Positions 2,150 to 60,287 of a stretch of DNA of 64,000 bases are shown piece after piece. The stretch comes from Patiria miniata (taxonomy: Eukaryota), in contig NW_024037060.1 of NCBI RefSeq assembly GCF_015706575.1, positions 1,073,983 to 1,137,982 on the forward strand, given 5' to 3'. Position 1 is the stretch's first letter; the number at the start of each line of letters is the position of its first letter. The notes under the pieces were generated by a model. That model saw only the letters and a program-made list of their open reading frames with translations. It was not told the origin of the DNA and did not search any database. Both the position numbers and the translations under genes were made by a program.

Positions 2150-2414
2150 ATGGCAGAAACCGACGCCCTGTTGTCGTACGTATCACCCAAGGATTCACAC
2201 CCAAGCTTGACCAAATACAATACTGTCAATGGGGACAGCCTTAGTGCGGAGACCCCATCTCCTGTGACGAACAGCTTGAAGAATGAGAGGGGAAAGCCCA
2301 TGGCAGCAGAACACGTGGTGTACAAAGCAAGGTGGTTCATTCTGGCCGTCTTCTCGCTACTTTGTATGTTGCAAGCAGCAACGTGGAACACATGGGGTCC
2401 CATCGCAGACACAG
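2150..2414 (+). CDS. SLC49-family MFS transporter (DIRC2/SLC49A4-like) paralog P1, exon 1/11
   Basis: Kozak aaccATGG at 2150; GT donor at 2415-2416 (phase 1); encodes MAETDALLSYVSPKDSHPSLTKYNTVNGDSLSAETPSPVTNSLKNERGKPMAAEHVVYKARWFILAVFSLLCMLQAATWNTWGPIADT (TM1). Confidence 0.8.
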
Positions 2415-2877
2415 GTTTGTCACACAATTTCACCAGTCTGTGCTGACAGGAGAGTTGTAACCAAGTCATTTTTGTCCTAGTCAAGTCAAGTCACAAGTCA
2501 CATATTTTCAAGTCAAGTCAAGTCTCAAGTCATTTTTTTCCAGAGTGAAGTCGTCTCAAGTAAAAAAAAGTAGTGACTTGAGTCCGACTCGAGTCCAAGT
2601 CAGCGACTCGAGTTAACAACACTGGCTGACAGCGTTAGCAGAAAATGTCTGATCTAACCCAGTAACCGCAGAATCCTTCGTTACGGGATGTAAACATGTG
2701 TATAATCCAAAATTCCTCTCTAACCCGTAAAAATAATTTGATTCCTTTTAATTCTAGGACCTACCTATAGATCTGGAATTATATTGTGTACATAATATCA
2801 GATTTTCGATTTACTTATAAGCTTCATTGATTGTAATGCATGATTTTAAACCTAATTCTTCATCATCTGATTTCTAG

Positions 2878-2988
2878 CCAAGGTTGTGTTGGACTGGACG
2901 GATGGTGACATAGCCCTGTTGGCCAACTGGGGTCCCATTGCATTCGTAATCACCTGCTTTTTCTTTTCCTATCTACTTCTCATCAAAG
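2878..2988 (+). CDS. P1 exon 2/11
   Basis: ttctag|CC acceptor, AAAG|gtaaga donor; 111 nt; AKVVLDWTDGDIALLANWGPIAFVITCFFFSYLLLIK (TM2). Confidence 0.8.
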
Positions 2989-3442
2989 GTAAGAAATTGT
3001 AGCACAATAATCTCATGGTTTTCATGTCGTGTTTTGTGAAATTTGTTGTTTTTATGAGAGCTACCTTGTGGGGTACTTGCACAAATGGAACAATGGTGCC
3101 GTATTTGTGTCTGCCGGTTGTTGTCTAACGGTGCCCAGAAGGGAAATTCTAAAGAAGAAGAATAAGAGTAGAACAATGCAAGACCCATAAGCCTCATCTA
3201 TAAGGTTGGGTGTAGGCCGGTGCAGGGGAGGGGGGGGGGTAGTTTGGGGCAGTATAAGGTGTTAACATCCCTCCCTCCTAAAACAGACAAAATTTGAATG
3301 GAAAAAAAAAAACGCACTTCCCTTTGAAAATAATTTTTAGAACACATGCTTTAAAGACATTATATAGCGTTAACATGTTTGAAACTCACGGAAATAGTGC
3401 AAAATAATTCATCAGCTATCTGTTTCTTTTCGTGTCCTGCAG

Positions 3443-3533
3443 GTCTCAGGTTTTTCGTATTATGCAGTTCCTTGATCTTCCTATTGGGAGTCACTATACG
3501 GTGCATTCCTGTCGGTGTAGAAAACGTGAAGTG
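3443..3533 (+). CDS. P1 exon 3/11
   Basis: ctgcag|GT acceptor, AAGTG|gtaaga donor; 91 nt; GLRFFVLCSSLIFLLGVTIRCIPVGVENVKW (TM3). Confidence 0.8.
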
Positions 3534-3795
3534 GTAAGAAAAATTATGAAGGCACAAATTGATTAATTTTCTATTTTTTTTATGAGATGGAAATAGATTC
3601 TGTTTCGTCCACGGGCTGCGAGAAACTAATCATTAGCTTACTTAGGTGGGACTTGAACCCAGGACCTCCTGGACTAGTGCAGATGTCTCAACATGACTAC
3701 GTTGTAGTACCATATTCAAACCATGGAATATTCATTGTCACATTGTAAATTGTCGTCTTAGATTCATTAAATACCTGTTTTGTGTTTTATCCAAG

Positions 3796-3996
3796 GACAA
3801 TGAATGCTGGCCACGTTTTAATTGGCATAGCTAGTCCTGTTATGATGTCAGCACCAACTGAATTATCAGCGGTCTGGTTCCCGCCTCACCAACGGACTAC
3901 GTCCACAGCCATTTCTTTGACCTCAGCAGGTTTTGGCATGTCCATGTCGTTTCTGGTGGGGCCATTAGTGGTCACAAGTCTTCCGCAAAATGCAAG
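3796..3996 (+). CDS. P1 exon 4/11
   Basis: ccaag|G acceptor, GCAAG|gtagta donor; 201 nt; ...[55 protein letters not shown] (TM4-5). Confidence 0.8.
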
Positions 3997-4254
3997 GTAG
4001 TAACCTTACCTATTTGGTTAGTTTCACGTTTGATCTTTTTTTAGAGCAACTGATCTTTGGAAAGAGAACTAATTGAAATCAATTGTCTCTTTTGACAATG
4101 GAAAAGAAGGTTTACTTTTGTTAAATTGAAGAATTATGAATTGTTAAAATGTTCCTCTTAATATCGCTAAGCTGTTACCAAATAATGTTTTTGTTGAATA
4201 AAAAAAAGAAGAAAAAAAAGACACTGCATTGTAACAGTGAATATTTGGTTTCAG

Positions 4255-4328
4255 TTCAAATGCAGAATCCATAGACCCAAAGGAGAAAGCACTGTACTTC
4301 AATGAGATAATGAAGTTAATGTATATAG
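4255..4328 (+). CDS. P1 exon 5/11
   Basis: tttcag|T acceptor, ATAG|gtatgt donor; 74 nt; SSNAESIDPKEKALYFNEIMKLMYI (cytoplasmic loop). Confidence 0.75.
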
Positions 4329-4595
4329 GTATGTACAAACTGTTGTCTTTCCAAAAAGTTACAGGGCTTAATGTTTTGGTCGTAGTAAAACTTCAGTTAA
4401 GGCAAACAGAATGTTGCCTGTAACAAAGATCTAACTGTATTTCAGTAAGTAAGCAGTCTGCAGCAATTTAGTCTTTTAAATATTCGTTGTCAGATTTGAT
4501 TCCAAAAAGGGAGGCTTCGTGATTTGTTTTTAATTTTGTTGAAGTTGAAAAAAAAACCATAAAAGACTTCCCTGAAAAGTCATTTGACTGTTGAA

Positions 4596-4869: not shown

Positions 4870-4999
4870 AATGTGGAGCTGTGGCCGTCGTGGTCATCGC
4901 GGCTCTATTGTACTTCCCTGAGAAGCCACCAACCTCGCCCAGCTTATCTGCCACCAAACCTCGGGAAAGCTTCAAAGATGGAGCCCTGAAGATGATCAA
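4870..4999 (+). CDS. P1 exon 6/11
   Basis: tttcag|AA acceptor, ATCAA|gttagt donor; 130 nt; ECGAVAVVVIAALLYFPEKPPTSPSLSATKPRESFKDGALKMI (TM6). Confidence 0.8.
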
Positions 5000-5169: not shown

Positions 5170-5281
5170 GAGCACCCATTTTTGGATTCCTGCGGCAGCC
5201 TACAGCATATCATCTGGAGTTTACAGTGGCTGGACCACGCAAATGGACACAATTTTCAAGAATACTCTGAATATAGGACAG
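5170..5281 (+). CDS. P1 exon 7/11
   Basis: ttaaag|G acceptor (an alternative AG lies 3 nt downstream), GACAG|gtaaca donor; 112 nt; KSTHFWIPAAAYSISSGVYSGWTTQMDTIFKNTLNIGQ (TM7). Confidence 0.7.
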
Positions 5282-5454: not shown

Positions 5455-5522
5455 GACACTGTTGGTTGGATTGGATTCATCTCCAATATTGCCGGGATGC
5501 TGGGAGGCTTGATAGTTGCAAG
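5455..5522 (+). CDS. P1 exon 8/11
   Basis: tttttcag|GAC acceptor, GCAAG|gtgagt donor; 68 nt; DTVGWIGFISNIAGMLGGLIVA (TM8). Confidence 0.8.
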
Positions 5523-5979: not shown

Positions 5980-6098
5980 ACTTGTAGACATCCTAGGCGG
6001 TAGGATGAAGGCAGTATTGATTTCACTCACCCTGGCAGCCTTCGTTAGCTGTGTATGGTGTGTCCTACTCTCAATGAAGTATATCTCATACAGTTTAG
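5980..6098 (+). CDS. P1 exon 9/11
   Basis: tcaccag|A acceptor, TTAG|gtgagt donor; 119 nt; RLVDILGGRMKAVLISLTLAAFVSCVWCVLLSMKYISYSL (TM9). Confidence 0.8.
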
Positions 6099-6463: not shown

Positions 6464-6646
6464 TGAGTGTCTACATTGCATGTATCTTCATTGGACTTTT
6501 CATCAACGCCTCCTTCCCCATATACTTTGAGATCACGGTCGAGGGCATGTATCCTGTCTCGGAAGGCAACATAACAATGGTGATGACATTCCTGACCAAT
6601 GTGGTTTCTGTGATATTCCTGTTGCTGCCGATGATTCCAAATCTAA
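6464..6646 (+). CDS. P1 exon 10/11
   Basis: ggttgcag|TG acceptor, CTAA|gtaagt donor; 183 nt; VSVYIACIFIGLFINASFPIYFEITVEGMYPVSEGNITMVMTFLTNVVSVIFLLLPMIPNL (TM10-11). The acceptor was chosen by homology to P5, since the ORF reads through upstream. Confidence 0.75.
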
Positions 6647-6823: not shown

Positions 6824-7098
6824 CAGGGGCTGATCCAGAACACAATTTTTTTTGGGGGGGGGCCAAAAAAATGTTGGTCCCCAAAAAGTGGGTCCAAGAA
6901 TATAACTGTGTGGGTTTTGGGGACCGCTTAAGGGCCCCCCCCCCCCCCCAATTTTTTTTTGGATTTTAGTGGTGTGATCTGTGGTGCGATCTGAGGCAAT
7001 TTTCTGACCACTTTGACCCAATTTTTTTGAGGAAAAGATGGTGGTGTACGCAGTGCCTGCCTTTATGACCCCCCCCCCCCCCCCCGGATCTGCCCTTG
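6824..7098. mobile_element. MITE family A (TIR CAAGGGCGGATCCAG, G/C homopolymers) in P1 intron 10; the copy is orthologous in P1-P4
   Basis: Terminal CAGGGGCTGATCCAG ... CCGGATCTGCCCTTG; the same insertion site occurs in P2 (28500-28713), P3 (39393-39670) and P4 (49414-49731). Confidence 0.7.
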
Positions 7099-12114: not shown

Positions 12115-12420
12115 TGGCATTTGCGTATGCACGCGCTGCCGCTCCTGATCGGATGAGCTATAGTATAGAATCGATTTAAACAAAAATGAACTCGATTTGT
12201 ACTCCCAGTACCACTCCTGGAGCCGAGTACCGAGTCCAAAACCACCAACGAGTCCGCGCCAAAATAATCGAATACGGGCCGAGTCCAAATAATTTTCGAG
12301 TACTCAGAGTCGGGCCGATCGAGTGCTTGCGTGTAGTACTCGAGTTGTTCAACACTGCTAATTTTTGGCAACCGCTTGACATTGAGAAATCTTACCCCTG
12401 GACTTTTCCATTTCACGATA
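12115..12420. repeat. Unit-boundary repeat of the tandem array
   Basis: 12115-12420 matches 1-300; 43310-43620 also matches, as does 32700-32830 in part (atttgcgtatgcacgcgctg(c/t)cgctcctgatcggatgagct...cttgacattgagcaatctcacccatttaataatgggatggtccaacta). Confidence 0.7.
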
Positions 12421-12424
12421 GTGA

Positions 12425-13090
12425 GGTACCTTAGTGAAAAAATCGTGACACAGTGGACAAAAGCACCATTTTTTCACCAAAGCATCTCCATGGTATACCT
12501 TTTCGAAAAAAAAGACGGACGCAAAAAATTGGATGAAAAAATATAAATTGATAATAATCTTCAGAACTACAAGCATTACAACAACAAATGTGGTATCAAA
12601 TTAAAGGGGACAGCAAGCTCTTTCATTTGAGTGGTATGTCATGGGGATGGAATATAGTTAAGGGTGATTTTGTGGGTCAAACAGACCCCTTTTTGGGGTC
12701 AAAAGACATGTTTTTAGGCTAAAATCATGGATTTTGGGTAGTCACATTGGCACCTTGTTTTAACATGCAAACAGTCTGTGGTATTGTGAGATGTTGCTTT
12801 TAAGTTCGAGAGAAAAGTTCAAATTCTATGCCAAAACAGTTTTTGTAATTGATTATTAGTATCATAAATATGTTTAAACTTGTTCCAAAGACAAGCGGAA
12901 AAGTGAGGCATCTTATAGCGAGCTACATTAGTAACAAAAATGCTATTAGGATCGTTACATGGTATTTAAAAGCACCATTTTTTTCACCAAAGCTTTGCCA
13001 ATGTGTTACGATCAAAAATAGGGTAGGATGCAAAAAATCGGATGACAGGAAGGGTACTTTATGACGTTATAATGACGTCACAATATACTA
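12425..13090. repeat. Left arm of a roughly 670-bp complex inverted repeat (partner 19215-19906)
   Basis: 12436-12840 is the reverse complement of 19490-19906; 12900-13080 is the reverse complement of 19230-19400. Together they bracket about 6.1 kb inside a roughly 10-kb block that exists only between P1 and P2. Confidence 0.6.
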
Positions 13091-15059
13091 CCAAGCTCGT
13101 ACAGTAATTAATTGTAGAAAATAAGGTCGTGAAGCGTTGTGATGAGATTCCAAGTAATTAATTTGACATTTTGAGGGTCAGGGAATTGAAGAGTGATATA
13201 ATCAGTGACATTTAAGTAACAATAAGCTGATTTGCTGTTGCAGTGACGTCACTATTTTCAAATTTTCTTGAAAAATCTAAGCATTTTTTGATTATGGACA
13301 AAAGTGCTACAATGACGGTATTCGTCACGCAGAAAATAAATTGTGTGAAATTGTGCGGCTCCTTGAATTTGGTCTTTACCACATCCATTTGTTTTGACCA
13401 TTTACTATAGCTGGAAGACGTAACATTCTTATATGTGTTGTATATTACGGGTAATGAGGTATGGGTTAGGAGCCAGACAAAAAAGGAACGTGGTAACCTG
13501 AAATAGATTAACAGAGTGGCCGGAAATGGTGATGGTATTTCCTTTAACAATGTATTACAAACGGGGGCCGCCCGATAGTCCGAAGGTCCAATAGTCCGAA
13601 GGTTCTTTAGTCCGAAGGTTCGATAGTTCAAATCAGGGGCGGATCCAGGATTTTCAAAAAGGGGGGCACAAAAACTTTGTGCGCGTTGCACACATAACGA
13701 GACTGAAGCGCGAAATCCCTTGCGGGCAGGGTTGAGGGCACTGGAAGCTCTACGATTCTAGATGTTCTCTCCTACATCATGAGTACTTTAAGCCATTAAG
13801 AGCAAAATTCACAATGTTTATTTTTTACTTTTAATAACACTATTTTTGCCTATCAAATATAGAATTTAAAGTCACTGTTGATGTAAGTTGAAAATGAACC
13901 CCAAAATTAGAAGGTGCTGATGACAGCCCCCGGGTGAAAAATATGAACATGTGTTATTTTGCGAGCGAGCGGAGCGAGCGAGCCAAAAAAAAGTCATGTT
14001 TACTATTAAAACATACATTTCTACCCAGAAATTTGCCTTGCAAACAAAGAAAATAAAATAAATTGAATTTCATTAGGGGACAGCCTGCCCCAAGCAGCCC
14101 CTACCCCACCCCACCCCACGGCTGAGCAAATCAACCGGCCCAGAAAATTTCTCCGTCCCAATTCCTTTGAAAAATGTTGTATAACTTATAAGCCTGCTGA
14201 GTATTACATTACGAATAGTCTTTACAAACAAAAAGAAGAAATAAAACTTTATTTCAAAACCATCTCGGTTGTCATAAAAAAAATTGATGATATTAGCAAA
14301 ATTTCCCCGTAGCGTTTAAATGTTTAGTCAAGACTTCAAAAAGACTGCCGCCTGTGTCCCAGTATAATGTGAGGTAACTGCGGTCACATATATACTAACT
14401 TTGTATATACACTTGTATACACTTTAACCACCATTTTTTTCCATGTTCTTTTGAAGTCTGCTGGCTAAATAATTTAAGACGAAATGAATCGTCTGCATTC
14501 TGCAAGTGTTGTCGAATCACTTCAAGAAATGTCAAGGCCTGAGGAAAATCGTTTATTTGTATTTTTTTGGGGGGGGGCGCCGATTTTCTTAAAAAGAAAA
14601 CAAAAAAAAACAAACTTTAATTTAACGGAAATGCAAACTACATCAAAATTCCAAATTCCAAAATATGAAAAAGTTTGTCTGCACAAATTTCCCGAAAGTG
14701 GCAGCATTCCTGAGCTGTTATCAAAGGCCTTAAAGTTCGGTGGCCTACAGCTGAACCCAAATGTATATGCTTTGTAATGAACAAGAGTAGCATTGTATCA
14801 ATTTGAACAATGCGGCTATCAATCATTCTCTGGAAAGGCTTTTCGGAGCTGAGATTTTATTTGGGCATTTGTTTTCCTCAGAGACAGGGGAAACCTTTAT
14901 GCGAAAAATGTGGGAAACTGAATTGAACGTGAAATTTCACCTCCGTGTTGTGTACATGCACATAGATAAACGATTGGGGGATGATATTCCAAGTCCAAAT
15001 AATTCATTAAATGTAGGGCTCCCGATGTCTTTTTTCGTAGTACGATTTTATTCTTCGCT

Positions 15060-15780
15060 TATTAAAAAAATAAAACTGCATGGCCTACATTATTTTTGTA
15101 AATGTTACTCTAAAATATTTCGGAATACATTTTGAAATTAAGTTTGAAGTCAAAGGGCTGTTGATAATCTTATTCGTATTCCTTTTAAAATTAGGAAAAA
15201 CTAAGCATAATTCGTATTAAAATTTCCCCTGGAATCTACAAAAGAATTAACTGAGGGTTCAGAACTTAATGGGCTAGGGTAGTTGAAATCGTTTTACTTT
15301 AAAAATAAATCGAGAGAACAAGACATACTAAATCGTATTAAAATAACCCCTATTTATTTGATTTCTCTCTATTTGAGGCAAAAGGGATGACGATTAATTC
15401 TTCGTGTATCTAAAAAATAAAATGCATGGCCTACATTATTTTGTGAAAATGTTTTACTCTAGAATATATTTTGGAATATATTTTGACGCTATTATTTGAG
15501 GGATGTTGTTAATCCTGATCATATTCATTTAAAAATAAGAAAAACCGAGCATAATTCGTATTAAATTTCCCCTGGAATCTACAAAAGAATTAACTTCGAG
15601 TACAAACTTTAACGAACTAGGTTTTTTTTAATCATTTTGCTTTTAAAAAAAAAGTTTTTGTAGAGAACCAGACGTAAATCTCTCTCTGAGGCCGGGAAAA
15701 TAAAAGAAGGGGAAGGCGATTTTATTCTTCATTTATTAAAAAAAACACATAGCCTACATAATTTCGTGTACCGGTACATG
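15060..15780. repeat. Roughly 355-bp tandem repeat (2 full units plus the start of a third)
   Basis: Units begin ...aaaataaaa(c)tgcatggcctacattatttt... at about 15068, 15418 and 15738 and share ...gcataattcgtattaaa(a)tttcccctggaatctacaaaagaattaact... Confidence 0.55.
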
Positions 15781-15782
15781 TT

Positions 15783-16141
15783 CTACTCAAGGGTGGATCC
15801 AGAACACAATTTTTGGGTGGGCCAAAACAAATTTTTGGTCCCCCCCCCCCAAAAAAAGTTTTGGTCCCCCCAAAAAGTGGGTCAAAAAAATTACGGCGTG
15901 GGGTTCGGGGCCCGCTTAAGGGCCCCGAAATTTTTTTGGATTCTAGATACTCTGTGGTGCGATCTGAGGCAATTTCTGACCACTTTAACCACTGTTTTAT
16001 TGAGGAAAAGATGGTGGTGTACTCATTGCCTGCCTTTATTGCGATGTCACATAAAAAAAAAAAATTGGTTTCGTTTTTTTTTGGGGGGGGGGGGGCATGG
16101 CCCCCTTTGCCCCCCCCCCCCCCCCCCCGGATCCGCCCTTG
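15783..16141. mobile_element. MITE family A copy inserted in the third unit of a roughly 355-bp tandem repeat
   Basis: CAAGGGTGGATCCAG...CCGGATCCGCCCTTG; flanks ctactc...ctactctagaatatattttggaata match the uninterrupted units at 15100 and 15460. Confidence 0.65.
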
Positions 16142-16727
16142 GCTCTACTCTAGAATATATTTTGGAATACATTTTGACATGAAGCATTAAATGCAAGTGC
16201 TGTATTAAATGTGCCCCTAGTGCAGCCGGGAAATAAAAAAGTGTCTTATAAAAATATATTCTTGCTTTGAAAGAAATTTTGAGACAATGATTGACAGGCG
16301 ACCTTCAAAACTTATACATTGTATATTTTTGTTGATAATTATGTATAATAGTTATGTTCCAAGCGATTGATTTGATGACCGCCCGTCCGCCCGCCATAAT
16401 GACTCCTCAAAAAGGAAAAAGATAGCCATGTTCTCAAAGGGATGTATTTAATGCGCGCCCGCCCTAAGATAACTCGTTAAAAAAAAAAATAAAAAAAAAC
16501 AGTTGCAAAAAGGGGGGCACGGGCCTGGTGTGCCCCCATCTGGATCCGCGCGTGGTTCAAATGCACAAAATTTCCATAAGAGGGGGTTCGTTGGTCCGAA
16601 AATGAAATAAGGTTCGTTAATCCGAACATTTGATGCAATAGTCCGAAGGTTCATTAATCCGAAGGTTCATTAGTCTGAAGGTTTATTTCTCCGAAGGTTC
16701 GATAGTCCGAATCGGTGATGTAGTGCC

Positions 16728-16850
16728 TTGATGCTGGGCCTTGGCCTTAAGGCTGCCTTAAGGCTGGACTTTAGGGCCTTGGCCTTGGCCTCGAGGCTTG
16801 AGGGCAAAAGCCTTGGCCTTGGCCTTGGCCTTGTCTACTGCGAAGGTGAA
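16728..16850. repeat. (GGCCTT)n-like microsatellite
   Basis: ggccttggccttaaggctgccttaaggctg...gccttggccttggccttg. Confidence 0.6.
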
Positions 16851-19214
16851 AAGAAAGAATGGTTTTGGAAAGAATGCATGCGACATGTTAAATGCCGTCA
16901 TGTAGCATGGACAGGGTAACCAATAGCACACATCAATCTGCATGGAATTGAAAACTTGCGGTACTTTATCTGAAAGGAAAAGAGGACCTAATTTTAGCAT
17001 AGTTAATGTTTTGCAAGTTGCTATCGATTTGTTGCTTCTACAATGTTTTCATATGTGAAGCTTGCTGACTGAAAAATGCACCTACTTCAACAGTTACGAG
17101 TTTCAAATTTGATAATATAATGAACCTTGCTTTTCAGTGTGGAACAGACCTTGCCAGCTTTATCCAGAGGAGGGACGAGGAATGCAGCAAGACGGGAGTA
17201 ACTCTCAAGACATACCATGGACCATTTCTTCAGTTCTTTAATGAGGTGACAGTGGCAAAGCTGTTTCGAGATGACCGTTTGTGGTATTAAAGTTTTAAAA
17301 TAACACATAAAGGTTTTCTGAAAATTTGGGAAGTTCATTTTTTACAATAAACTGATACAAAATAATGTATTTTGTGAAAAGTGACGCAATAACATTTGGA
17401 AAGAAACTTAACCTTTTTCAACAGCTTGTGCTCATCTAGTAAATAATTATCTGAAGTTGCTTCCCTTCAAGATGAATCAGAACAATTTATACCAAGTTTT
17501 GAAAAATCTACTTTCAAGATTAGGCAATTGTTAATAAGATTTATAATGAATTACAAGACAATTCAGCAAGTCTATCTGTAAAATTGGCAATTTGAAGAAA
17601 TCAAATGCTGAACTTAAAGTACAAATCTTGAATATCATCCAACTTCTATTGGGGAGAACCGGAGAACCACAAGATGGGTTCAAACTCAAAGTTAAAATTG
17701 ACTGAATCTGAGGGAGAGGGTGACGATATTACGGAAACTAAAATATAACATCCACTTATTAAAGGGAATATACATCATTTGCTTTTGCTGTAATTTTCAG
17801 AAATGGATGGAATTGGGGGGTTGGAAATATAAAGCAAATATAGTTACACTGACTTTTTGGAGGTTTTGGGTTCGAAAATGCTATAAAAACCAAGAAAAAC
17901 GATCATTTTCCTGTAGTCTGGTTCCCTGACTCCATATAAGAAGAAACAGAGCAGTTTACATACATTGGGGAATTGTAAGGTCAGGGAACCAGTCTAGCTG
18001 GCTCGTACCCGTTCATAGGTTTGTAATCGATTGCAAACAAGTGCAATGGTCAATTGGGGCCAGTATTTGAAAAAAAGCCAGTTGTTTCCAACGCTGATCG
18101 GCCGATCAGCGTTGGAAATTGATACAAAAATACCACTTTTCTTGAAAATGACAGTATACCAGGTGCCATAATTTTACAGGATGCTTTAGACTGTCATTTA
18201 CCAACATCCTGTTAAGGTATTTCGCAAAAACTTGGTAGTTTTATTTTTCGATGTTTACAAATGTTGTATATTCCCTTTAAGCAATGATGTCATTTGATGC
18301 AGGTCAGGTCGGTTGTTTTTGTTTGTCTTTTGTTAAAAAACAACCAAGACATGTTGGTTAGAATTCTGACTAATATAGATAGGTTGAAAAGCAAACCATT
18401 TCAGATTGGTTATTTTAAGCAATAGATTGGTTGGACACATATCTACCAACCACATTGGTTGAATTTGACTAATATATTGATTTCAACCAATTTGTTTTTA
18501 GAGTGTAGACACATGGATTACAAGATACGAGAACTGTTCGATTGCCTCATTGATGTTCTCCGAGGTCACCGTGTTAAAATTACAAAAAGTGTTAATTGTA
18601 GAAGGTTGTGAATCTTTTCTTTCAAAACTGAGGGAGGAATTATTGCAGTCATATTTATTTTATCGTCAATGTAAAATTGTGTCTTATTTCATTTTGTTCC
18701 CGGGTATTTTCTTGTTTTTTCTTTAGTGTGTGTATTTAATCTGAGTGTAGACCTATGTATGTCAACTAGGTTGTTTGTTTCTATGGGTTGCATTTTTCTC
18801 TCTGGGGAATGGGATTGCTTTTGTTTCTCGGTTTTGTTTTGTTTTGTTTTGTTTGTAATAATCTCTTTAGCCCGTTTGTCATTCGTTCCCGTTATTGAGT
18901 CTGAAGGGTTTAGGGCAATAAATGCATTGCCAGTTGATGTAGAATACGGAGCCGAAGGGACAGTAGAATAGCTACTAACGAATCATTGATCACAACAGGG
19001 GATAGGAGCGAGGGTCAAATGTACATGTACATACATGTTTAATTTAATACATTAAATTAGGAAACATCCCTCATTTTATCAAACTATTTGTATTTAAATC
19101 TTTTAAAGATAGTCTAAGAACAAAATTGGCAACTGCACTGATTTCCTTGATCTCAGAAACGTATATTAAATGTAAAAAAAACGATCCATGGCTTATTCCT
19201 AGATAATATTTCAA

Positions 19215-19906
19215 TTTTAATGTATAAGTGTTTAATAATTAGCCGATGACGTCATAATGATGTCATAAATGGCCCTTCCCATCATCCAATTTTTTGCATC
19301 CTACCTTTTTTTCGAAAACGTAAACAATGGAGATGCTTTGGTGTGAAAATGGTGCTTTTCTCCACCCGTGTCACGATTTTATCACCAAGGTACCTCACTT
19401 TTCCGCTTATCTTTGGAACACTAAACATTTAAGATACTAATAATCAATTACAAAAACTCTTTAAGCATAGAATTTGAGCCTTTCTCTCTGACTTCAAAAC
19501 AACATCTCACAATACCACATACTGTTTGCATGTTAAAACAAAGTGTCAAAGTGACTACCCAAAATCCATGATTTTAGCCCCAAAAAACGGTCTTTTGACC
19601 AAAAAGGTTTTTTTGACCCACAAAATCACCCTCAACTATATTCCATCCCAATGACATACCACTCAAATGAAAGATCTTGTTGTCCCCTTTAATTTGATAC
19701 CAAATTTGTTGTTGAGATGCTCGCAGTTCTGAAGATTATTATTAATTTATATTTTTTCATGTAATAATTAGCTGATGACGTCATAATGACGTCATACATG
19801 CCCTTTCCATCATTCAATTTTTTGCGTCCGTCTTTTTTTCGAAAAGGTATACCATGGAGATGCTTTGGTGAAAAAATGGTGCTTTTGTCCACTGTGTAAC
19901 GATCCT
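19215..19906. repeat. Right arm of the complex inverted repeat
   Basis: See the left arm. Confidence 0.6.
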
Positions 19907-20295
19907 TAGCATTTTTGTTACTAATTATAATGTACCTCACTACGAGGCGAAGCCGAGTGAACTGAGAAAGTCCAGATTTTACCGAGCGATAATATTCCTC
20001 CCATTTCACAATTTAAAGCCACTCAATATTTGTTTTATATAGCTGACATATAGATCCTTGTCATTTGATATATTTGAACTTTTTTCAATACAAAACTGAA
20101 GGAAAATCTATTTCTCTCTTCCAGATCACCCCTTCACGAAAATATTTGAACCTAACGCTGTAGCGCTGGCTCTTTGGAACAATACGCGCTACGCGCAACG
20201 CTGAACGCGCACACCAGCATTCATTTGCACACAAATACCGCGTCATGATCCTAACTGTTGAATAGTATTTCCCATTCCCCATGGGCGGATAGTAT

Positions 20296-20420
20296 CCAAA
20301 TACTTCGAGTGGTGTAGTAAAACTAGCCTCCCGAGGTGATGCATGGACATTCTATTTTCCCGAGGCAAAGCCAAGGGAAAATAGAATGCTCCATGGATCA
20401 CCGAGGGAGGCTAGTTTTAC
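20296..20420. repeat. Perfect roughly 48-bp-stem hairpin with loop GAGGCAAAGCCAAG
   Basis: tagtaaaactagcctcccgaggtgatgcatggacattctattttccc | gaggcaaagccaag | ggaaaatagaatgctccatggatcaccgagggaggctagttttact. Confidence 0.6.
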
Positions 20421-20583
20421 TTCACCAAGAGATAAAGCATTCAATACAGGCGCGGTTCTAGAACCAATATTTTTGGGGGGCTAGCACGGTCGATCCAGAA
20501 ATTTTTTTCAGGGAGGCGTGCTGAAATGTTGACCGGTTATTTTTTCCAGACACTTAGGCCTCCGAAGATCAATAGGTGGTGGT

Positions 20584-20621
<38 letters not shown>
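20584..20621. repeat. Poly-G tract (about 38 G)
   Basis: Uninterrupted G run inside the hAT-like element; similar C/G runs occur at 1289-1306 and inside MITE-A copies. Confidence 0.8.
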
Positions 20622-20680
20622 CTCATGCCATATTTTCAACGGGGAACGCCAATAAAATCCTAAAATCATTCACACTATAG

Positions 20681-21001
20681 CAAGGGCGGATCCAGAACAC
20701 AATTTTTTGTGGGGGGGGGGCCCAAAAAAAATTTGGTCCCCCAAAAAAGTGGGTCCAAAAAATTACGGCGTGGGGTTCGGGGCCCCGAACAATTTTTGGA
20801 TTCTAGATGCTCTGTGGTGCGATCTGAGGCAATTTCTGACCACTTTAACCAATTGTTTTTGAGGAAAAGATGGTGGTGCACTCATTGCCTGCCTTTATTG
20901 CGATGTCACATAAAACAAACAAAAATTGGTTTCGGTTTTTTTTTGGGGGGGGGGGCGATGGCCCCCTTTGGCCTCCCCTCCCCCTCCTGGATCCGCCCTT
21001 G
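20681..21001. mobile_element. MITE family A copy nested inside the hAT-like element
   Basis: CAAGGGCGGATCCAG...CTGGATCCGCCCTTG. Confidence 0.65.
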
Positions 21002-23353
21002 CACTATCTATACTACAATTCAAGGAATCTCTGTCTGTCTGTCCGTCTGTCTGTCTGTCTGTCTGTCCGCCGATTATCTCCAGAACTGGGCACCGTATGA
21101 AGTTGAAAATCGGCGGGTGTATTGCTCGGGACACCAGAATGTGCAGTGCCAAATTTGAAGGGGTTTGGAAGAGCGGTTGTCGAAAAAGCTGCAAAAAAGC
21201 AGCATTTTTTGAGACTCAACGTGGCAGAGTATAGCCTAGAACTCCACGCACTACTGTTCTTTTCAATTGTTTACGTCATGTTAAAGCTAAAGCGCGCGTG
21301 CTCAATATGACGCAAACAATGCAAAAAGGACGAGCACGCGCACGTGCATTGTAGGGCGATACCATTGTCCAGTATGGGTGAATAGCACTGCGTACCATAT
21401 GTTTCCGTACGTGATGACTGCACGGGCACATGCATTTTGCAGTCGATTGAACCACTATTGTAGGCGGTGGATTGAGCAACCTTACTCACGTAGGTGAGTA
21501 GCTGCACGGGCGTATTGGTGAATATCAGTGCCGGGGATGGCCTGGCGACATGTACAAAGTGCGCTCAACCTATGAGTGTGAGTTTAACATGTGAAAACAA
21601 CACAATTGAATCGTGTGCGTTGTTTGCATGATATGAGCATTTTGAAATTGCCCCTAACGAACAGGTGCATTTTTTTGACGGGCCCTGCAAAAATGACGGG
21701 CACATTGTAGGGAGATAAGCACTGCACACTATGTCTTCGTACGTACATATACGTGAGTAGCATGCACGGGCACATGCATTTTGTACTCAAATGAGCAACC
21801 ATCACTGCACTGTATGTGCCGGGGGGGGGGGGTGACGACATTTTGTGAGTTTAACTTGCGAGTGTGCTTTCACACCATTGAATAATGTGCGTTGTTTGCA
21901 CGAGCTGCAGTTCTCAACTGCCCCTTCCGAACACGCACATTTTCGACTGGCCCTGCACTAGTATTAACTAATGCACCCTTGTCACGGCTATTTCTTCTTT
22001 AGGGGGAGACCGTTCACATGTACATCACAATCCTTCTTTTTGCTAATGCAATTTGTTTTTTTACGGAATTTATTTTGGGGGGGCTAGACAAAATTTTTTG
22101 GGGGCTACAGCTCCCCCTAGCCCCCCCGTAGAACCGCGCCTGATTCAATATTTGTTTTTTTAACACTTCACCCACAGATTCTGCTTGATTTTAATATTTT
22201 AAATTATTTAAATCTGAACACAGTTGAAATTAACTTCAATTTCAATACAAAATTGGTGGAAAATGTATTTCTCTCTTAAAAACCACCCCTTCACGAAATG
22301 TTTGAACCGTAAGTCTGCGGCGCGCTCTCTTTGGAATAATGCGCGCTACGCACTACGCGCAACGCGCACACCAGCATGCATTTGCACACAAATACCGCGC
22401 CATGGAAATAGTACTTTGGTTGCTAATGGTATAGTACTTTGGTTGCTATGCGCATAGTACTTTTGGCCGTGCACAGAAAGATAGCAAAATTAGAAAGTAA
22501 CACGTGACTCGCTCTCGGCCAATCAAGACACAGAATCTGTGGGTGAGGTGTTATAATCCAAACAAGTACAAGTGCAGGCAGCACGTATACAGGCGCGGCT
22601 GTGTGAGTGTACGTGTACCGACGAAGTGTCAAAGTTTTCCGTCATTCAAATAGTTATACTCTTTCTGCACATTGAACTAAAATAACTGCTAAATGTGTTT
22701 TGTAACCAAAGCTTCGGCTCGTTACACCTACATGCAATTACTTGTGAAGGACGGTGGAATCGCAGGGCGGCCTCGGACTGGTTTTGTACACACTAGCTGA
22801 CTAGGCCTACGTACTGCTGCTGTTTAGCATGTTTAGATGATGTGCTATATTCTGTACGAATCTCGTGATCCGGCCATTCAACTTTTTTTAAGGCGATTGT
22901 GTAGGCCTAGGCGCAAGGCTACATGTATAGTTATTTCATCATAGTAGTACAGTGCAGTGTCCACCGGCCCCCTCTATCTTTTGGTCCTTAGGACGACTGT
23001 GCCAACATGCACGCCTAGCATGTCTGACTAAGCCTGACTTGCTATTGCGGCTTAATTTCCTTTCCTTAAATTGATCTTTGTTTTGTTCTAACCGGTTGTT
23101 TACATTTTAAAACTTTCTCCAATTCCTTCAGCTCAGTGACGTGCCATGCGTGTGTGGGTGGTAATCAGGTTATGAACTGCCCACATCTTTCAAGGGTCCT
23201 GCAAAAAGGATGTGGCAGGCTGCAGGCAGAGGCAGTCGCTATGTCTTAATTAAAGTCACCCTTGCTGCATCTGGTGCAGATACCAACAAATCCCACGCAG
23301 GTTGAGAGACCGCTAGTCACGACACTAGTTTGAATTGAACACATCAAGTAACC

Positions 23354-50132: not shown

Positions 50133-53100
50133 CAAATGATATTGTCCTCTTCTAGGGCTGTGCATGTTCAAATAATTTCATATTTGATTATTCTAACTTG
50201 GATTGATTGAATATTCAAATATTTGAAATGCACCGATCAAAATTAACAGCCACTTGAATTATCATGTTTTTAATTCATAATTTTCTCTCACTAAGTAAGT
50301 TATGAACTTGCCAATGAGACGTTGCACACAAATCTTCTGACAGTATTAAGGTTAAGTTTGAATTGGAGTGACTTGCTCCCAAGTTTTGACAGTTCTATAT
50401 CCCCCTGGACTGTGTAGAGTACTAAGTGTAATACAGCATTATTACATTTAAAAAGTACATTTTTCCCCCCACAATTAGTGGGTATGTGGAAGACTGACGT
50501 ACTAATTTTGAAACTCATATTTGCTTGTATTCCCACATACTTCTCAACCAAGAAGTATGAAGGCATTATTTTATATATTTTGATAATTATTCAATGAAGT
50601 GAGATTGATATTTGTTTTAATATCAACTAACTTGTAATTAATAGAATGTCTGTGAAGGGTTGGGTTTGTAAGAAAATAATATTTTATGTTATGAATATTA
50701 CATGAACACCTGTCCAAGTTTGTAGTATTGTTATCTCACAAGCTCTTGGAAAGCACTGAATATATAACAATTATATAACAATGATATTTAAAATTTCAAG
50801 ATATTTGCACATATCTACATCAAAGGTGTTATTGATCAAAGGTGTTATTGATATTTACATGTAACAACTATCACTCAGGACACCGGTAAAGTCAATACAA
50901 TTAATACACAATGTATATAGGTCCACATTTTTAATATTGCAATGAATGTTGACTTTTGTGGCTTCATATAGTATGCTACTGCATTTCCAATAATATAAGA
51001 AGGTGTTATAGGCAGTGATTACGTATCATAGGTGGTTCGTTCTAAAATTTTACACATTTATACAAACTTTTTATAATTTTTTTTCCAGCAATGTACATTG
51101 ATAAAGATGATACTCGTTTTTCATGTGTATAATGCTTGAAATTAGAAATGCTGGCATTTCTACCATGACTGTAAATTTAATTGGTATATTTTTTAAATTT
51201 AAAACAAATAGTCGACTTTTATCCAATTTCTCGTCACTCCAATCGTGATTGATGCCTTATGCCGTTGAATTTAATGTAAACTTTTCATTCTAGACGGTTT
51301 GACACAACTCATGTAAATACGGGTAAAATTTTGGTGGTTTTTGTTAGATGATTATTTGAGTTATGATTAATTGTATTTCCTTTTGTAGTACGTATATGTG
51401 GCAATTTTGGTGAAACTTCAAAACCGATTGTTGCACTAAAACATTTTTATAAAATATCAACTGGAAATCAAGTCTTTCACATACTGCCATGTTTTATTTA
51501 AATGTCAGTTATTTTGAGGATAGTCATAAATTAACATGAAATCATACGGTGGGCAGAAAAGTGATTGCACTTTATTATTATGTCAAAATTTGACATTAAC
51601 GTATCGGTTTTCTTTGAAACTGCCAGAGAAAAAGAAAGGAAATATTAAGATTCCATTCAAGTATGTGGACTAACAGCCATTTTTGAATCGTAGTGATAAA
51701 TTAATATTTATAACATTTTTAAACACCTTACAGTGCCTTAATACACATTTTTCTTAATTTGTGCTTGGAATTAAATCGATAAATCTCGAATAACAACTTC
51801 AACAGTAGCTGCATTTTCAACGCACTGTCTTAAGATTAAGAATCTTACGATTAACCACAACGGTACTAATTAAATACTAATTAAAGTTTGCATTGTTTGC
51901 AATCAACACATAGTTTGAACATAATAAATTCTTGGGAAAAATGTTGTATTCAATGTCTGCGTAAATATATTTTCACAAATCTTGAAAACATATTGACATC
52001 GATTAAAATTTAGGTTGCACAACACGGTTCTTGGAAGATTTAGTAATTGTAAACACATTAAAGTTACTCTCTTTAACAACTTCGATTTTGTTTTTTAAAA
52101 TAGAATTCATGTTTTAAATTAAAATAAAACTAACATTTTCTATTTTTCTTTTTCGACGACTGCAACCCTCCGATTTGTTTTTTTTTTCTTTTTGACTTTG
52201 GGTAGCTTTAGCTCTTAACGTACAAAAAAAATCCGGAAGAATTATTGTCAATCGCAAAAAAAAATCGAAATTTGTAAAGTAATTATTCCATAACACTACA
52301 CGTCAACTTGATATATTTTCGTTTGGTGTCTCATTCAAAAGTAAATAACTTTTGCATTTCCAGGAAAAGAGCAGTTTGAAATACAAATCTATTTTCTGGT
52401 CACAATGAACTCGAAAATGGCACGGGAAAGGTCATTTTGTCTTAAAATGAGACCATTATTTCAAAGGTATGACTAAATATAATACATGCATGTCAGTGCT
52501 TCAGCCTCCAAATTGTGTACATTAAGACAGTGCCAACCCATTTACAATGTGACATGACACTGCAAAAAGTTCCAGTGTGTTATATATAAGTTATAACTAT
52601 AACTTGGAAATCTGTATTATAAGTGCCAACAGTAAATTCAATGCTTAAAGGAAAGATTGAAGAGCGTCATATTCCCGACAAATAGGAAATTGAAATTGTC
52701 ACCGGCCCAAGTTTTATTTCAGTTATTGGTACCTTACCGCACCCATACAAAGGAAGACAAAAGTAGACGGAAAGGATTAAAGAAGATCGTCGAAGTTGAG
52801 TTATTTATTTTAGCCCTTCTTTTTTTTTCTTTTCTTTTTAAAGTACATGTAACATAAACTGCTGCCGAAAGGGCTTTATATAGTAAAAAGTTGTTTTGAA
52901 ATAGTGCCTTCATCATCAGGCGTCGTCTTCACCCAACTTTTCCGATTTTTTCACGGCTATTTTGCTAGTATGCTAATGTTTTGCACTCACTTTGGAAAAA
53001 TCCTGGCTTCAACTATGCTTATTATCAGTGGTGGAAGAATCGACATTTTTGTTATTTGTGATTATGTAGTAAAAACAGTAGCTGCAGCCTGAGTCAACAA

Positions 53101-56204: not shown

Positions 56205-56209
56205 CCTAC

Positions 56210-57897: not shown

Positions 57898-58054
57898 AAC
57901 CCGACCCAGCCCAACCCAACCCAGCCCAGCCCAGCCCAGCCCAGCCCAGCCCAGCCCAGCCCAGCCCAGCCCAGCCCAGCCCAGCCCAGCCCAGCCCAGC
58001 CCAGCCCAGCCCAGCCCAGCCCAGCCCAGCCCAGCCCAGCCCAGCCCAGCCCAA
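57898..58054. repeat. (CCCAG)n microsatellite, about 31 units, in P5 intron 4
   Basis: cccagcccaacccaacccag(cccag)n. Confidence 0.9.
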
Positions 58055-58079
58055 ACCCAACCAATGTGGTAAGTCTCAC

Positions 58080-58280
58080 GTGACATTCTTGGGCACATCG
58101 CTCACGATGTTCGGACCAATCAGGAAAGAGCAAGCCAGGCCGAAGTAGCCTGCCGTGGAGGCTATAGCCGTAGATGTAGTGCGCTGATGAGGTGGAAACC
58201 AGACTGCCGAGAGCTGCGTCGGTGCCGCTTGGAGAATGGGTGCTGACACGCCCACAAAGACCTGACCAATGTTGGCCGTC
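58080..58280 (-). CDS. P5 exon 4/11
   Basis: 201 nt; [67 protein letters not shown]; donor AC|gtgaga. Confidence 0.7.
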
Positions 58281-58722
58281 CTGGAAAAAAGGGAAATAGA
58301 GGTTTAGTGCGAAATTTGAACTTTATGAAATACGGACTGTAGGTTGTCTTGCGCAGGCCTCTTGAGGTGATTAAAAAAACAAAGAAAGGTGGAAGCCGTT
58401 CGTGAACATGACTGTGTGCTTGTATTTATGTGAACATTAGGATGAAATTGGGCCCTGAACTTGTTCTGTAATTTTGCAACGGAGTACAGGCACCATTTTT
58501 GAAAATGGTGACGGGCTTCAGGACTACTTCTACAGGGGTGATCATAATTATTTGAATGGAAATTTCTCCCAAAAGTCATCGGATTACCCCCCCCCCCAAA
58601 AAAAATGAACAGAAAATGAACGACGATGAAGTAAGCTTTAATTTGATGTGTATCAAATAACTTGGAGAGGTGCGAGTATTTTTTCTTGATTTTTGGAACA
58701 AAACATTTGGGGACATTCGTAC

Positions 58723-58813
58723 CATTTGATGTTTTCCATTCCGACTGGAATGCAACGTAAACCCATGCCGAACAGGAAGAGTAAAGCACTGCACAGCACA
58801 GCAAAGCGTAGTC
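58723..58813 (-). CDS. P5 exon 3/11
   Basis: 91 nt; GLRFAVLCSALLFLFGMGLRCIPVGMENIKW. Confidence 0.7.
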
Positions 58814-59267
58814 CTGTTAAGATAAAGTCAAACAAGAATCGTTTGGGTGGACTCTAACCAGCCAGTGAATCCGAACAAGATCATTGGTCGAAAGTCGAAA
58901 CACGTGTTTTTTTTTTAAGTTAACAGGTGGTTGTGTGCGAGCTTCTTGTGCTTTTTCTGACAATCCTATACGGAGGGTGCCGTGTTTAGATTGTGTAAAT
59001 ACTTCAAGTAAGAAGCAACCGCTGTAGGAAATAAGTATTAAATTCGCACACCAATTTTGATGTAACAAAATGGCGTTGTATATCGATGACCCAAAGTTAG
59101 ATTTTAAAATTCAATGATGTGGATTAACAAGACTAATTTTAAATATTTATACGACCTCCGTGCTATGGCTCATTAAAAAGAATTAATGACCGTCACATCA
59201 AAAATATATTCACAAACAAGATTGTTTTATTATTATACACACAAAAACAAAAACGTCATTCACCGAC

Positions 59268-59378
59268 CTTTGACCTTCAGTATATAGGAAAAGATGAATC
59301 CCGTCACGACGTACGTGATTGGCCCCCAGTTGATGCACAAGTCGAGGTCCGCTTGGGTCCACCGTAGAACTACTTCGG
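59268..59378 (-). CDS. P5 exon 2/11
   Basis: 111 nt; acag|CC...AAAG|gtcggt; TEVVLRWTQADLDLCINWGPITYVVTGFIFSYILKVK. Confidence 0.7.
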
Positions 59379-59962
59379 CTGTGTCAAACATCACAACAAA
59401 TGACTTGAAGAGCAAACAAATGTTTTGATAGCAAATTCTTATTGTTGAGGGCGTGAGTTTGAACGTTCTGAGGGAAGTTGCATTATATAAGCAAAAAAAA
59501 AAAAACCAAGCTTAAGGCCATCAACAGATGTTCCTCCGCTGGTGGCCCTCTATAATCACTGCACACGTAAATCCCAACCGAACAGCTGCGCAAACTTAAT
59601 TATCCCTCCACTCTTTTCCGCAGCATTGCACTGTACGCGGAATATGCTTAATTATGTTCCATTATAGAGTAAAGTATAGTCATCGCAAAAGGTAAAAAAA
59701 ACCCAAATTACCAGACAAATCATCAAACGAGTAGAGAGTAGGGGCGTGGGCTAAAATTTGGAGGGAGGAATTTGGAGGTAGTTCGCATCGTTTGAAGAGG
59801 GACTCAAAGGTTAAAAAAAAAGAGCTCATTTGCATTCAACGAATTCTGAGCGGGGAAAGCACAAGCCATGGAGGGGGTGGGGGGGGGGGCCGGGGGGTAC
59901 CCCCATTTCCCCCTTAATAACATCACTGCCATCAGAGAGACAAAACAATGAGGACATCTTAC

Positions 59963-60287
59963 TGGTATCAGCTATGGGACCCCACGTGTTCCAGGCAGCC
60001 GCCTGTAAGACAAAGAGAAGCGAGAAGACGGCCAGGATGTACCACCGTCTTGCATAGGCCACATAGTGCTCCTCCTGCAGATGCTCATGGTGCTTATGAT
60101 GATAACCGTCCAGACTCTGGCGAAGGCTGCAATTCTTCTCGGAGTCTCTGGGCGAGATTGGGGGAGGAGTGCAGGCGTCGTTCAGCGTGCACTCGGGCGG
60201 CCCGGCGAGGGGTGTGGTCCGAGGGAAGTCATCTTCAGCGTACGGCAGGAGCGGTCTTGTGTCGGGTTCTTTCTCAGTCCGATCCAT
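59963..60287 (-). CDS. Divergent SLC49-family (DIRC2-like) paralog P5, exon 1/11
   Basis: Minus strand; cgatATGGat Kozak (ATG = plus 60285-60287); MDRTEKEPDTRPLLPYAEDDFPRTTPLAGPPECTLNDACTPPPISPRDSEKNCSLRQSLDGYHHKHHEHLQEEHYVAYARRWYILAVFSLLFVLQAAAWNTWGPIADT; donor GT at 59962-59961. A longer N-terminus from an upstream ATG (60422) is possible but passes through a poly-T-derived FFF stretch. Confidence 0.65.

Follow-up and report, generated by a model that had tools for sequence, protein, structure and literature searches.

Organization of the SLC49A4-like gene cluster

The locus examined here raises the question of how five genes for closely similar transporters came to lie side by side in a sea star genome, and whether the copies have since taken on different roles. 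The window analyzed, a 64-kb stretch of the Patiria miniata genome, was found to carry five 11-exon SLC49A4/DIRC2-like MFS genes (P1 to P5) within positions 2150-60287, with P1-P4 arranged head-to-tail on the + strand and P5 on the - strand, convergent with P4. Self-BLAST of the window revealed four direct repeat units of ~10-11 kb each at 93-96% identity, and exon mapping placed one 11-exon gene with GT-AG introns in every unit. The repeats thus share one orientation, each comprises a whole gene with its flanks, and the spacers are regular, in agreement with the direct tandem array of P1-P4 that had been proposed in the initial annotation.

The units differ in their inserted sequences, and the repeat ends short of P5. 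Unit 1 is longer than the others by self-comparison, due to a ~10-kb insertion at 12.4-22.6 kb (12398..22573, strand unassigned) that separates units 1 and 2, is absent from the other spacers and has inverted arms of ~0.6 kb (12442-13080 and 19247-19903) around ~6.2 kb; no Pfam-recognisable ORF was found in it. A 1.2-kb satellite is present in unit 2 alone. The 3' flank of unit 4 (50133..52368, +) is homologous by self-BLAST to its counterparts in units 1-3, with repeat homology stopping at ~52368, ~0.8 kb short of the P5 stop codon; the tail-to-tail spacer between P4 and P5 is ~3 kb. At the other end of the window, an inter-unit spacer and the P1 upstream region (1..2149, +) were found by self-BLAST to be homologous to 43314-43973, 22574-23378, 32836-33069 and the tail of the P1 3' flank (12119-12397). 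Positions 1-679 match the spacers upstream of P2, P3 and P4 as well as this tail, so that the window does begin inside a unit-boundary repeat as first noticed. Continuation of the array upstream is plausible, since a sixth close paralogue, P0002 (XP_038058623, 489 aa, 81-84% identical to P1-P4), lies outside the window on the same 8.3-Mb scaffold; RefSeq accession numbers are no guide to its position there. Twenty ORFs of 80-200 aa, taken from both ends of the window, the spacers, intron 10 of P1 and intron 9 of P5, had no credible Pfam match, and neither Rfam families nor tRNAs were found in the respective RNA and tRNA searches.

Gene models and exon structure

Each of the five gene models matches a Patiria miniata RefSeq protein letter for letter, under the name SLC49A4 homolog or SLC49A4-like, and the genes are already known in that the NCBI RefSeq annotation covers all of them. 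P1 (2150..9806, +; 11 exons, 494 aa, XP_038058424.1) has coding exons at 2150-2414, 2878-2988, 3443-3533, 3796-3996, 4255-4328, 4870-4999, 5170-5281, 5455-5522, 5980-6098, 6464-6646 and 9676-9806, with an intron 10 of ~3 kb that is swollen by repeat insertions. P2 (23354..29136, +; 485 aa, XP_038058425.1) has a private, in-frame 33-bp deletion in exon 1 that leaves an ETDALL motif in place. P3 (34443..40068, +; 494 aa, XP_038058418-421.1, P0001) has exons of 271, 111, 91, 201, 74, 130, 112, 68, 119, 183 and 125 bp, and P0001 aligns exactly to the genome as spliced P3. Four RefSeq accessions share this one P3 protein sequence and possibly represent separate transcript models. P5 (53178..60287, -; 11 exons, 506 aa, XP_038058242.1) has coding exons at 60287-59963, 59378-59268, 58813-58723, 58280-58080, 57712-57645, 57447-57318, 56837-56726, 56277-56210, 54681-54563, 54120-53938 and 53290-53178. 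For P1, P2, P3 and P5, exon mapping and translation gave the four protein sizes first assembled (494, 485, 494 and 506 aa), all RefSeq-identical.

The exon lengths had been described as identical in all copies, which holds for exons 2-10 among P1-P4 and, once P5 is included, for exons 2-4 and 6-10, but not for exons 1, 5 and 11. For P1 to P5 in turn, exon 1 measures 265, 238, 271, 264 and 325 bp. Exon 5 has 74 bp in P1-P4 compared to 68 bp in P5 and the orthologues, and a 1-bp indel distinguishes copies in the coding part of exon 11. All copies share the same intron phases, and 40/40 splice sites are canonical in P1-P4.

P4 (44634..50132, +) departs from the description of five complete genes, which fits P1, P2, P3 and P5. 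A 1-bp deletion at ~44650, after codon 5 and private to P4, disrupts the ancestral frame, such that the ancestral ATG at 44634 now heads a 10-codon uORF. The RefSeq CDS (442 aa, XP_038058426.1, '-like') begins at position 44783 with the first in-frame ATG, which is preceded by three upstream ATGs. Exons 2-11 and every splice site of P4 are intact; the 442-aa model is without the N-terminal ExxxLL lysosomal sorting motif. An error of assembly or a polymorphism might account for the frameshift, and P4 is flagged here as a gene whose annotated start depends on this change.

Family identity and predicted fold

The assignment of these genes to an SLC49A4/DIRC2-like MFS family was upheld by homologue, profile, structure and tree comparisons. 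Pfam MFS_1 was matched by P1 (E=4e-22, 79 bits) and P5 (71 bits) above the gathering cut-off of 33.4. The best homologues all carry an SLC49A4/DIRC2 annotation, and the named homologues overall are nearly all SLC49A4 or DIRC2, with one SLC49A3 (E=1e-10) as the sole other family name. An AlphaFold2 model of P1 (pLDDT 88.6, pTM 0.86) displays an MFS fold with 12 long helices, consistent with the 12 transmembrane segments originally counted. Its best Foldseek matches are FLVCR2 and FLVCR1 (target-normalised TM-score 0.94-0.95, rmsd 1.8-1.9 Å), and a family profile matched FLVCR1 at E=2e-65. Against the PDB, 436 matches were obtained at E<=0.001, and the best 50 of these 436 are all membrane transporters, mostly named MFS proteins. 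In a neighbor-joining tree rooted on SLC49A3 and built from sequences other than the FLVCRs, vertebrate SLC49A4 falls inside the clade of the P genes.

By best homologues and tree, human DIRC2/SLC49A4 thus falls in the same MFS subfamily, and it has the same 12-TM fold as the P1 model, with vertebrate SLC49A4 proteins ~33-35% identical to those of Patiria. Vertebrates had been credited with single DIRC2 and FLVCR genes; one SLC49A4 per vertebrate species is found among the matches listed, compared to five clustered copies in Patiria, but vertebrates have two FLVCR genes, and FLVCR1 and FLVCR2 both appear among the PDB matches. Human DIRC2 was shown in human cells in 2022 to be an H+-driven pyridoxine exporter, and changing its LL to AA sends the protein to the plasma membrane (PMC9719028). 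Its motif, E10RQPL14L15, corresponds to ETDALL in P1, P2 and P3 and to DTRPLL in P5, a [DE]xxxL[LI] pattern that recurs across the family and is missing from the P4 model. By homology, the products would be proton-coupled exporters with 12 TM segments in the lysosomal membrane, presumably sorted there by the N-terminal [DE]xxxL[LI] signal as in the human protein.

An ancient gene pair and a probable recent amplification

We compared the locus to those of two other sea stars. P5 clusters with a 502-aa protein of Acanthaster and a 490-aa protein of Asterias, and P1-P4 with a 484-aa protein of Acanthaster and a 489-aa protein of Asterias (bootstrap 93-100); P1-P4 together with P0002 are monophyletic at 100% bootstrap. 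The Acanthaster orthologue of P5, XP_022100532, is 85.9% identical in amino acid sequence. Both species have one gene of the P1-4 type (type A) adjoining one of the P5 type (type B). In Acanthaster planci (DF978612.1) the pair is adjacent and convergent, and has the same neighbouring RRM gene as in Patiria; in Asterias rubens (LR699094.1) it is likewise adjacent but, unlike in Patiria, head-to-tail. These orthologues also have 11 exons (x, 111, 91, 201, 68, 130, 112, 68, 119, 183 and 113 or 125 bp), and relative to them the Patiria type-A genes have gained 6 bp in exon 5.

Since Acanthaster and Asterias both have the two gene types side by side, the split between P1-4 and P5 predates crown sea stars, and the tree agrees with the earlier view that P5 stems from an older duplication. 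By contrast to the single type-A gene of each of these species, Patiria has four within the window and, elsewhere on the scaffold, P0002, and a four-fold expansion specific to the Patiria lineage, as initially put forward, is supported. We propose that a type-A gene (the source of P1-P4) and a type-B gene (now P5) were neighbours in the ancestral sea star and that, in the Patiria lineage, a ~10.5-kb unit spanning the complete type-A gene later multiplied, probably by unequal crossing-over, into no fewer than four direct copies. The expansion can in this way be dated to an ancient A/B pair followed by amplification in the Patiria lineage only.

Divergence and constraint among the copies

Protein identity is 93.7-96.5% among P1-P4, within the range of more than 90% given earlier, and 58.6-62.8% between P5 and P1-P4, close to the first estimate of about 55-60% for this minus-strand gene lying tail-to-tail with P4. 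P1 and P2 differ by 1.8% in exons and 3.3% in introns, with a dS of 0.031. Informative sites are mosaic and run in blocks (18 sites group 12|34, 21 group 13|24 and 10 group 14|23), and the divergence of unit 4 varies from ~1% to 10% along the unit. Such runs, with the varying divergence of unit 4, indicate gene conversion or recombination, and non-allelic gene conversion probably still homogenises the copies in part.

Within the array, 61 indel events were counted in 3951 intron columns compared to 3 in 1360 exon columns, and all three exonic events are in exon 1. Substitutions in exons accumulate at ~60% of the rate in introns. The dN/dS ratio is 0.48-0.99 within the array, statistically indistinguishable from 1, compared to 0.08-0.13 against the orthologues, and relaxed constraint alone could thus account for the substitutions. 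The copies would appear to be still selected for an open reading frame, with amino-acid constraint much relaxed. Dietary or xenobiotic selection, as first suggested for this family, would be conjectural, the raised dN/dS being the one observation in its favour. A cluster of substitutions in TM11 (9/47 variable sites, p=4e-4) was considered as a sign of positive selection and down-weighted, as divergence is just as high (8-10%) in the flanking introns of unit 4; it may instead be an older tract that escaped conversion.

Taken as a whole, these data make it probable that the locus is a genuine young Patiria tandem array, formed from an old A/B pair by type-A amplification, with copies of mixed fate. 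The most likely arrangement would be a mix of dosage copies and of copies that are diverging, or starting to decay, in pocket and targeting. An account in which the copies of a real array are functionally redundant, with one or two of them doing the ancestral job, P3 and P4 being incipient pseudogenes and no adaptive diversification, is the best of the alternatives and still rather unlikely. It would fit the dN/dS near 1 within the array, the P4 frameshift with three upstream ATGs ahead of the in-frame start, and a W79S substitution in P3, the sole substituter at a position occupied by W in 56/58 aligned homologues. However, exons 2-10 have zero indels in all four copies compared to ~15 per kb in the introns, every splice site is canonical, the P4 protein is the more ancestral in sequence and evolves no faster than the other copies, and P3 has its four same-sequence accessions.

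Substrate pocket and sorting signal

FLVCR1 and FLVCR2 (SLC49A1/A2) are the nearest solved (cryo-EM) structures, with TM-scores up to 0.95 at ~21% identity. The substrates of these two are choline/ethanolamine. FLVCRs are plasma-membrane uniporters, and a W125A change in FLVCR1 lowers transport (PMC11168923). This central TM1 residue corresponds to W79 of P1, P2, P4 and P5 and aligns to the W79S of P3, which differs from human DIRC2 in being without the conserved TM1 Trp. The other contacts are not those of FLVCR1 (Q214 is G/S/A, Y349 is G/S/V/A and Q471 is N in the sea star proteins), so that the substrate is expected, from these alignments, to differ from that of FLVCR1/2. P1 and P2 alter the positions equivalent to Q214 and Y349 through changes predicted to line the cavity (G169S in both, G310S in P1 and G310V in P2). 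Three of the five equivalents of FLVCR1 substrate contacts vary among P1-P4 (p ~0.008, post hoc), as mapped by mafft alignment from paralogues that are only ~21% identical and transport a different substrate.

These variants could be read as neofunctionalisation, with adaptive divergence of the substrate pocket and P4 serving as a plasma-membrane importer instead of a lysosomal protein, an interpretation that we regard as unlikely. Having lost the dileucine signal, P4 might import its substrate across the plasma membrane, by analogy with the human LL-to-AA mutant. Divergence of the P1/P2 level lies within the range of allelic divergence known from highly polymorphic echinoderms. It is nevertheless very improbable that divergent haplotypes of a shorter array (e.g., two genes) were assembled in tandem and that the true copy number is below four, a scenario compatible with the closeness of P1 and P2 and with the exact proteins being found in no independent source outside NCBI, but opposed by zero N runs (no assembly gaps) in the window, the features private to single units (10-kb insertion, 1.2-kb satellite) or genes (33-bp deletion in P2, frameshift in P4) that fit distinct loci, the collinear and regularly repeated spacers, a mosaic pattern spanning all four units, and the more diverged P0002 on the same scaffold.

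Comparison to other SLC49A families

Among marine invertebrates, solute-carrier genes are often duplicated in tandem. The array as understood here, from an old pair and young type-A copies, would be a real but ordinary young tandem duplication of little weight for general genome biology. Among the homologue matches are five SLC49A4-like proteins of Amphiura, seven of Pecten and three with consecutive locus tags of Sinanodonta, and C. elegans is reported to have eight SLC49A homologues (PMC13484576); these families have several paralogues as in Patiria, but by independent events, and with several SLC49A-like proteins in many other invertebrates the multi-copy pattern is a common one. A search of the literature for DIRC2/SLC49A4 in echinoderms retrieved nothing relevant. 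The substrate of SLC49A4 was characterised only recently, and the natural variants described here, which affect predicted substrate sites and sorting signals, could guide DIRC2 mutagenesis. In zebrafish, loss of slc49a4 has been linked to fewer red blood cells in a 2026 preprint (PMC13484576).

Gene models and organization of the array

The window (about 40% GC) is eukaryotic, with short ORFs only, and self-comparison revealed a unit of about 10-11 kb that is repeated four times in direct orientation at 93-96% identity, with starts near 1, 22.6, 33.1 and 43.3 kb. When the visible exons were roughly joined and used as a query, 117 homologues were obtained; those with a name were nearly all SLC49A4 or DIRC2, and the top matches were Patiria miniata proteins. 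The 494-aa RefSeq protein XP_038058418-421 was found to be encoded exactly by 34443-40068 (gene P3, + strand) in 11 exons with GT-AG introns. Genes of the other units were modelled by mapping of these exons, and the minus-strand gene P5 was assembled by hand. By this approach, P1 (2150-9806, + strand, 494 aa), P2 (23354-29136, + strand, 485 aa), P3 and P5 (60287-53178, - strand, 506 aa) were letter-for-letter identical to XP_038058424, XP_038058425, XP_038058418-421 and XP_038058242, respectively, as was a 442-aa version of P4 (+ strand, RefSeq coding sequence start at ATG 44783) to XP_038058426. Thus, the array genes are already annotated in RefSeq. The tandem array is most likely real and was correctly identified in the initial annotation, and it is an ordinary kind of event.

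Protein identity was measured at 93.7-96.5% among P1-P4, for which more than 90% had been claimed, and at 58.6-62.8% between P5 and P1-P4, in agreement with the earlier estimate of about 55-60%. Intron phases were conserved as described. Exon lengths, reported to be identical in all five genes, agreed within P1-P4 for exons 2-10, and P5 shared them in exons 2-4 and 6-10. Exon 5 differs, with 74 bp in each of P1-P4 but 68 bp in P5. Since the 68-bp length also occurs in all three reconstructed orthologues, the 74-bp form is a gain in the Patiria genes of the P1-P4 kind (type A, with the P5 kind termed type B).

By contrast to the five complete genes described initially, P4 was found to be 5'-truncated in this assembly. 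Its ancestral frame is broken by a 1-bp deletion after codon 5, near 44650 (GACGCCCTG to GACA-CCTG, compared to P1-P3), such that the original start codon (ATG 44634, with the strong context ACCATGG) is now that of a 10-codon ORF. Two further out-of-frame ATGs precede the in-frame ATG used by RefSeq. The remainder of P4 is intact, all splice sites included.

Family assignment, sorting motif and predicted pocket

P1 and P5 both matched Pfam MFS_1 well above threshold. An AlphaFold2 model of P1, built from a 58-sequence alignment, had twelve long helices (pLDDT 88.6, pTM 0.86), and its closest solved structures were FLVCR2 and FLVCR1 (target-normalised TM-score up to 0.95, rmsd 1.8-1.9 Å). The remaining matches listed were all membrane transporters, ranked about nine orders of magnitude lower by E-value. 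FLVCR1 was also matched by the family sequence profile (E=2e-65). In a neighbor-joining tree rooted with an SLC49A3 sequence, vertebrate SLC49A4 nested within the clade to which the echinoderm genes belong, which places the array genes in the SLC49A4/DIRC2 branch. Named homologues, structural matches and tree agree on the SLC49 family proposed initially, and each criterion of sequence and modelled structure that was applied points to this branch.

Human DIRC2 exports pyridoxine in an H+-driven manner, and its lysosomal sorting requires an N-terminal ExxxLL motif (E10RQPL14L15), and its LL-to-AA mutant is directed to the plasma membrane (PMC9719028). The N-terminal counterpart of this motif is ETDALL in P1-P3 and DTRPLL in P5; a motif of the same kind was detected in 22 of the 27 homologues scanned, from sponge to fishes. 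P1-P3 and P5 are predicted to be lysosomal, and the substrate of the array proteins is likewise a prediction. The 442-aa product of P4 is devoid of the N-terminal dileucine-type motif, a mildly unusual loss that we consider a testable lead rather than a finding.

Choline is reported to be contacted in FLVCR1 by W125, Q214, F348, Y349 and Q471 (PMC11168923), which correspond in the family alignment to P1 positions 79, 169, 309, 310 and 436. Three of these five are variable among P1-P4, with W79 changed to S in P3, G169 to S in P1 and P2, and G310 to S in P1 and V in P2. The binomial probability of this was about 0.008 given a background of about 10% variable positions, a post hoc value based on contacts borrowed from paralogues of about 21% identity. 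Position 79 is tryptophan in 56 of the 58 aligned homologues, P3 having the sole substitution and the SLC49A3 outgroup being gapped. In P3, three nonsynonymous changes within 11 bp of exon 1 (34678-34688, ACGTGGAACACA to GCGTCGAACGCA) convert the motif TWNTW to ASNAW, with loss of the TM1 tryptophan that aligns with choline-contacting W125 of FLVCR1. Substitutions at these predicted pocket positions are mildly unusual, and are offered as a lead for testing and not as a finding.

Evolutionary history in sea stars

Four clades of sea-star SLC49A4 genes were resolved in the tree. P1-P4 clustered with single genes of Acanthaster (484 aa) and Asterias (489 aa), together with a sixth P. miniata paralogue (XP_038058623, 489 aa) that lies outside the window on the same 8.32-Mb scaffold, whereas P5 clustered with an Acanthaster gene of 502 aa and an Asterias gene of 490 aa (bootstrap 93-100 for both). 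The Acanthaster locus is ordered as a TEP1-like gene, one type-A gene, one convergent type-B gene and an RRM gene; in Asterias (LR699094.1:9893994-9925389), type-B and type-A genes are adjacent and head-to-tail. This adjacency and the tree indicate that types A and B arose by an old tandem duplication, before these sea-star orders diverged, as had been suggested for P5. The convergent orientation of the pair in Patiria and Acanthaster, by contrast to that in Asterias, implies that one gene was inverted in one lineage after the ancient duplication. With a single type-A gene in each of the other two species, type-A amplification is restricted to the Patiria lineage. Taken together, these results revealed the evolutionary history in the initial annotation to be essentially correct; the dietary or xenobiotic selection put forward there is a hypothesis.

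In Acanthaster, the P5 orthologue has the RRM gene upstream of it, and the last exon of that gene (1113-1324 of the DF978612.1 locus) is 74% identical in DNA to window positions 63493-63704 (- strand, within an ORF at 63489-63914). Thus, synteny is retained next to P5, which forms the end of the array. The window begins, as noted initially, within a unit-boundary repeat, namely in a homologue of the inter-unit spacer and the tail of the unit 3' flank. Based on this start and on the sixth paralogue of the scaffold, it is plausible that the array continues upstream. Literature search turned up no description of an SLC49A4 expansion in echinoderms; in invertebrates, it is common for a species to have multiple SLC49A-like paralogues (PMC13484576), as also seen among the 117 homologues.

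Conversion and constraint within the array

Each of the three ways to pair the units was backed by parsimony-informative two-versus-two sites, which occur in runs (18, 21 and 10 sites), and unit 4 differed from the others by between about 1% near exons 6-8 and 8-10% near exons 3-5 and exon 10. These patterns point to exchange between units by non-allelic gene conversion or recombination, and divergence is therefore no direct guide to the age of a copy. TM11 holds 9 of the 47 variable sites, a cluster that is probably in the main an older tract that escaped conversion, because divergence of unit 4 is just as high in the adjoining introns.

Values of dN/dS were 0.48-0.99 between copies (not significantly different from 1), compared to 0.08-0.13 between orthologues and about 0.1 for P1-P4 versus P5. 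Thus, amino-acid constraint within the array is greatly relaxed. Redundant copies in decay would fit these near-neutral values, as well as the P4 frameshift and the W79S change of P3. Such decay is less easily reconciled with exons 2-10, which are without any indel in all copies. Per column, indels were about seven-fold less frequent in exons (3 events in 1360 columns, each of them in exon 1) than in introns (61 in 3951), and exons accumulated substitutions at about 60% of the intron rate; both observations show selection that keeps the reading frames open. That the array is in part an artefact of haplotypes assembled in tandem is unlikely, as the window is gap-free, the inter-unit spacers are regularly repeated, and units carry private structure: unit 1 is followed by the 10-kb insertion, unit 2 has a 1.2-kb satellite, P2 lacks 33 bp and P4 is frameshifted.

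Repeats and insertions

The insertion of about 10 kb (12398-22573) is private to the spacer of units 1 and 2 and unrelated to the units. Two inverted arms, each about 0.6 kb long (12442-13080 and 19247-19903, 83-99% complementary), enclose about 6.2 kb, and no Pfam-recognisable ORF was detected within the insertion, which is possibly a DNA element of the foldback or non-autonomous kind. Dispersed repeats of about 200-300 bp, in both orientations and 78-97% identical, were located at 6843-7078, 8583-9037, 15849-16152, 20681-21010, 28504-28694, 38167-38394, 39394-39641 and 49414-49654, most of them within the 10-kb insertion or intron 10 of P1-P4. They matched no tRNA or Rfam family, include a 173-bp unit in 1.9 tandem copies (8605-8936), and partly account for the 3-kb length of intron 10 in P1.

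The spacer after P2, alone among the units, has a large palindromic block composed of about 30 copies of a 21-bp satellite (CGGATTATTAATTCGTTATTA; 30600-31242), 134 bp, and about 18 inverted copies (31377-31768). In intron 4 of P5, a seemingly perfect (CCCAG)n microsatellite with about 30 repeats (57905-58053) starts 27 bp from the exon 4 donor. Just upstream of P3, a 17-bp tandem repeat (CAACTCGGACCCACGAC and its complement) is present in opposite orientations at 33117-33179 and 33964-34093. Within the P3 upstream region, positions 34046-34351 differ by 10-13% from their counterparts in the other units, compared to only 1.7% between units 1 and 2, and the promoter context of P3 may be different.
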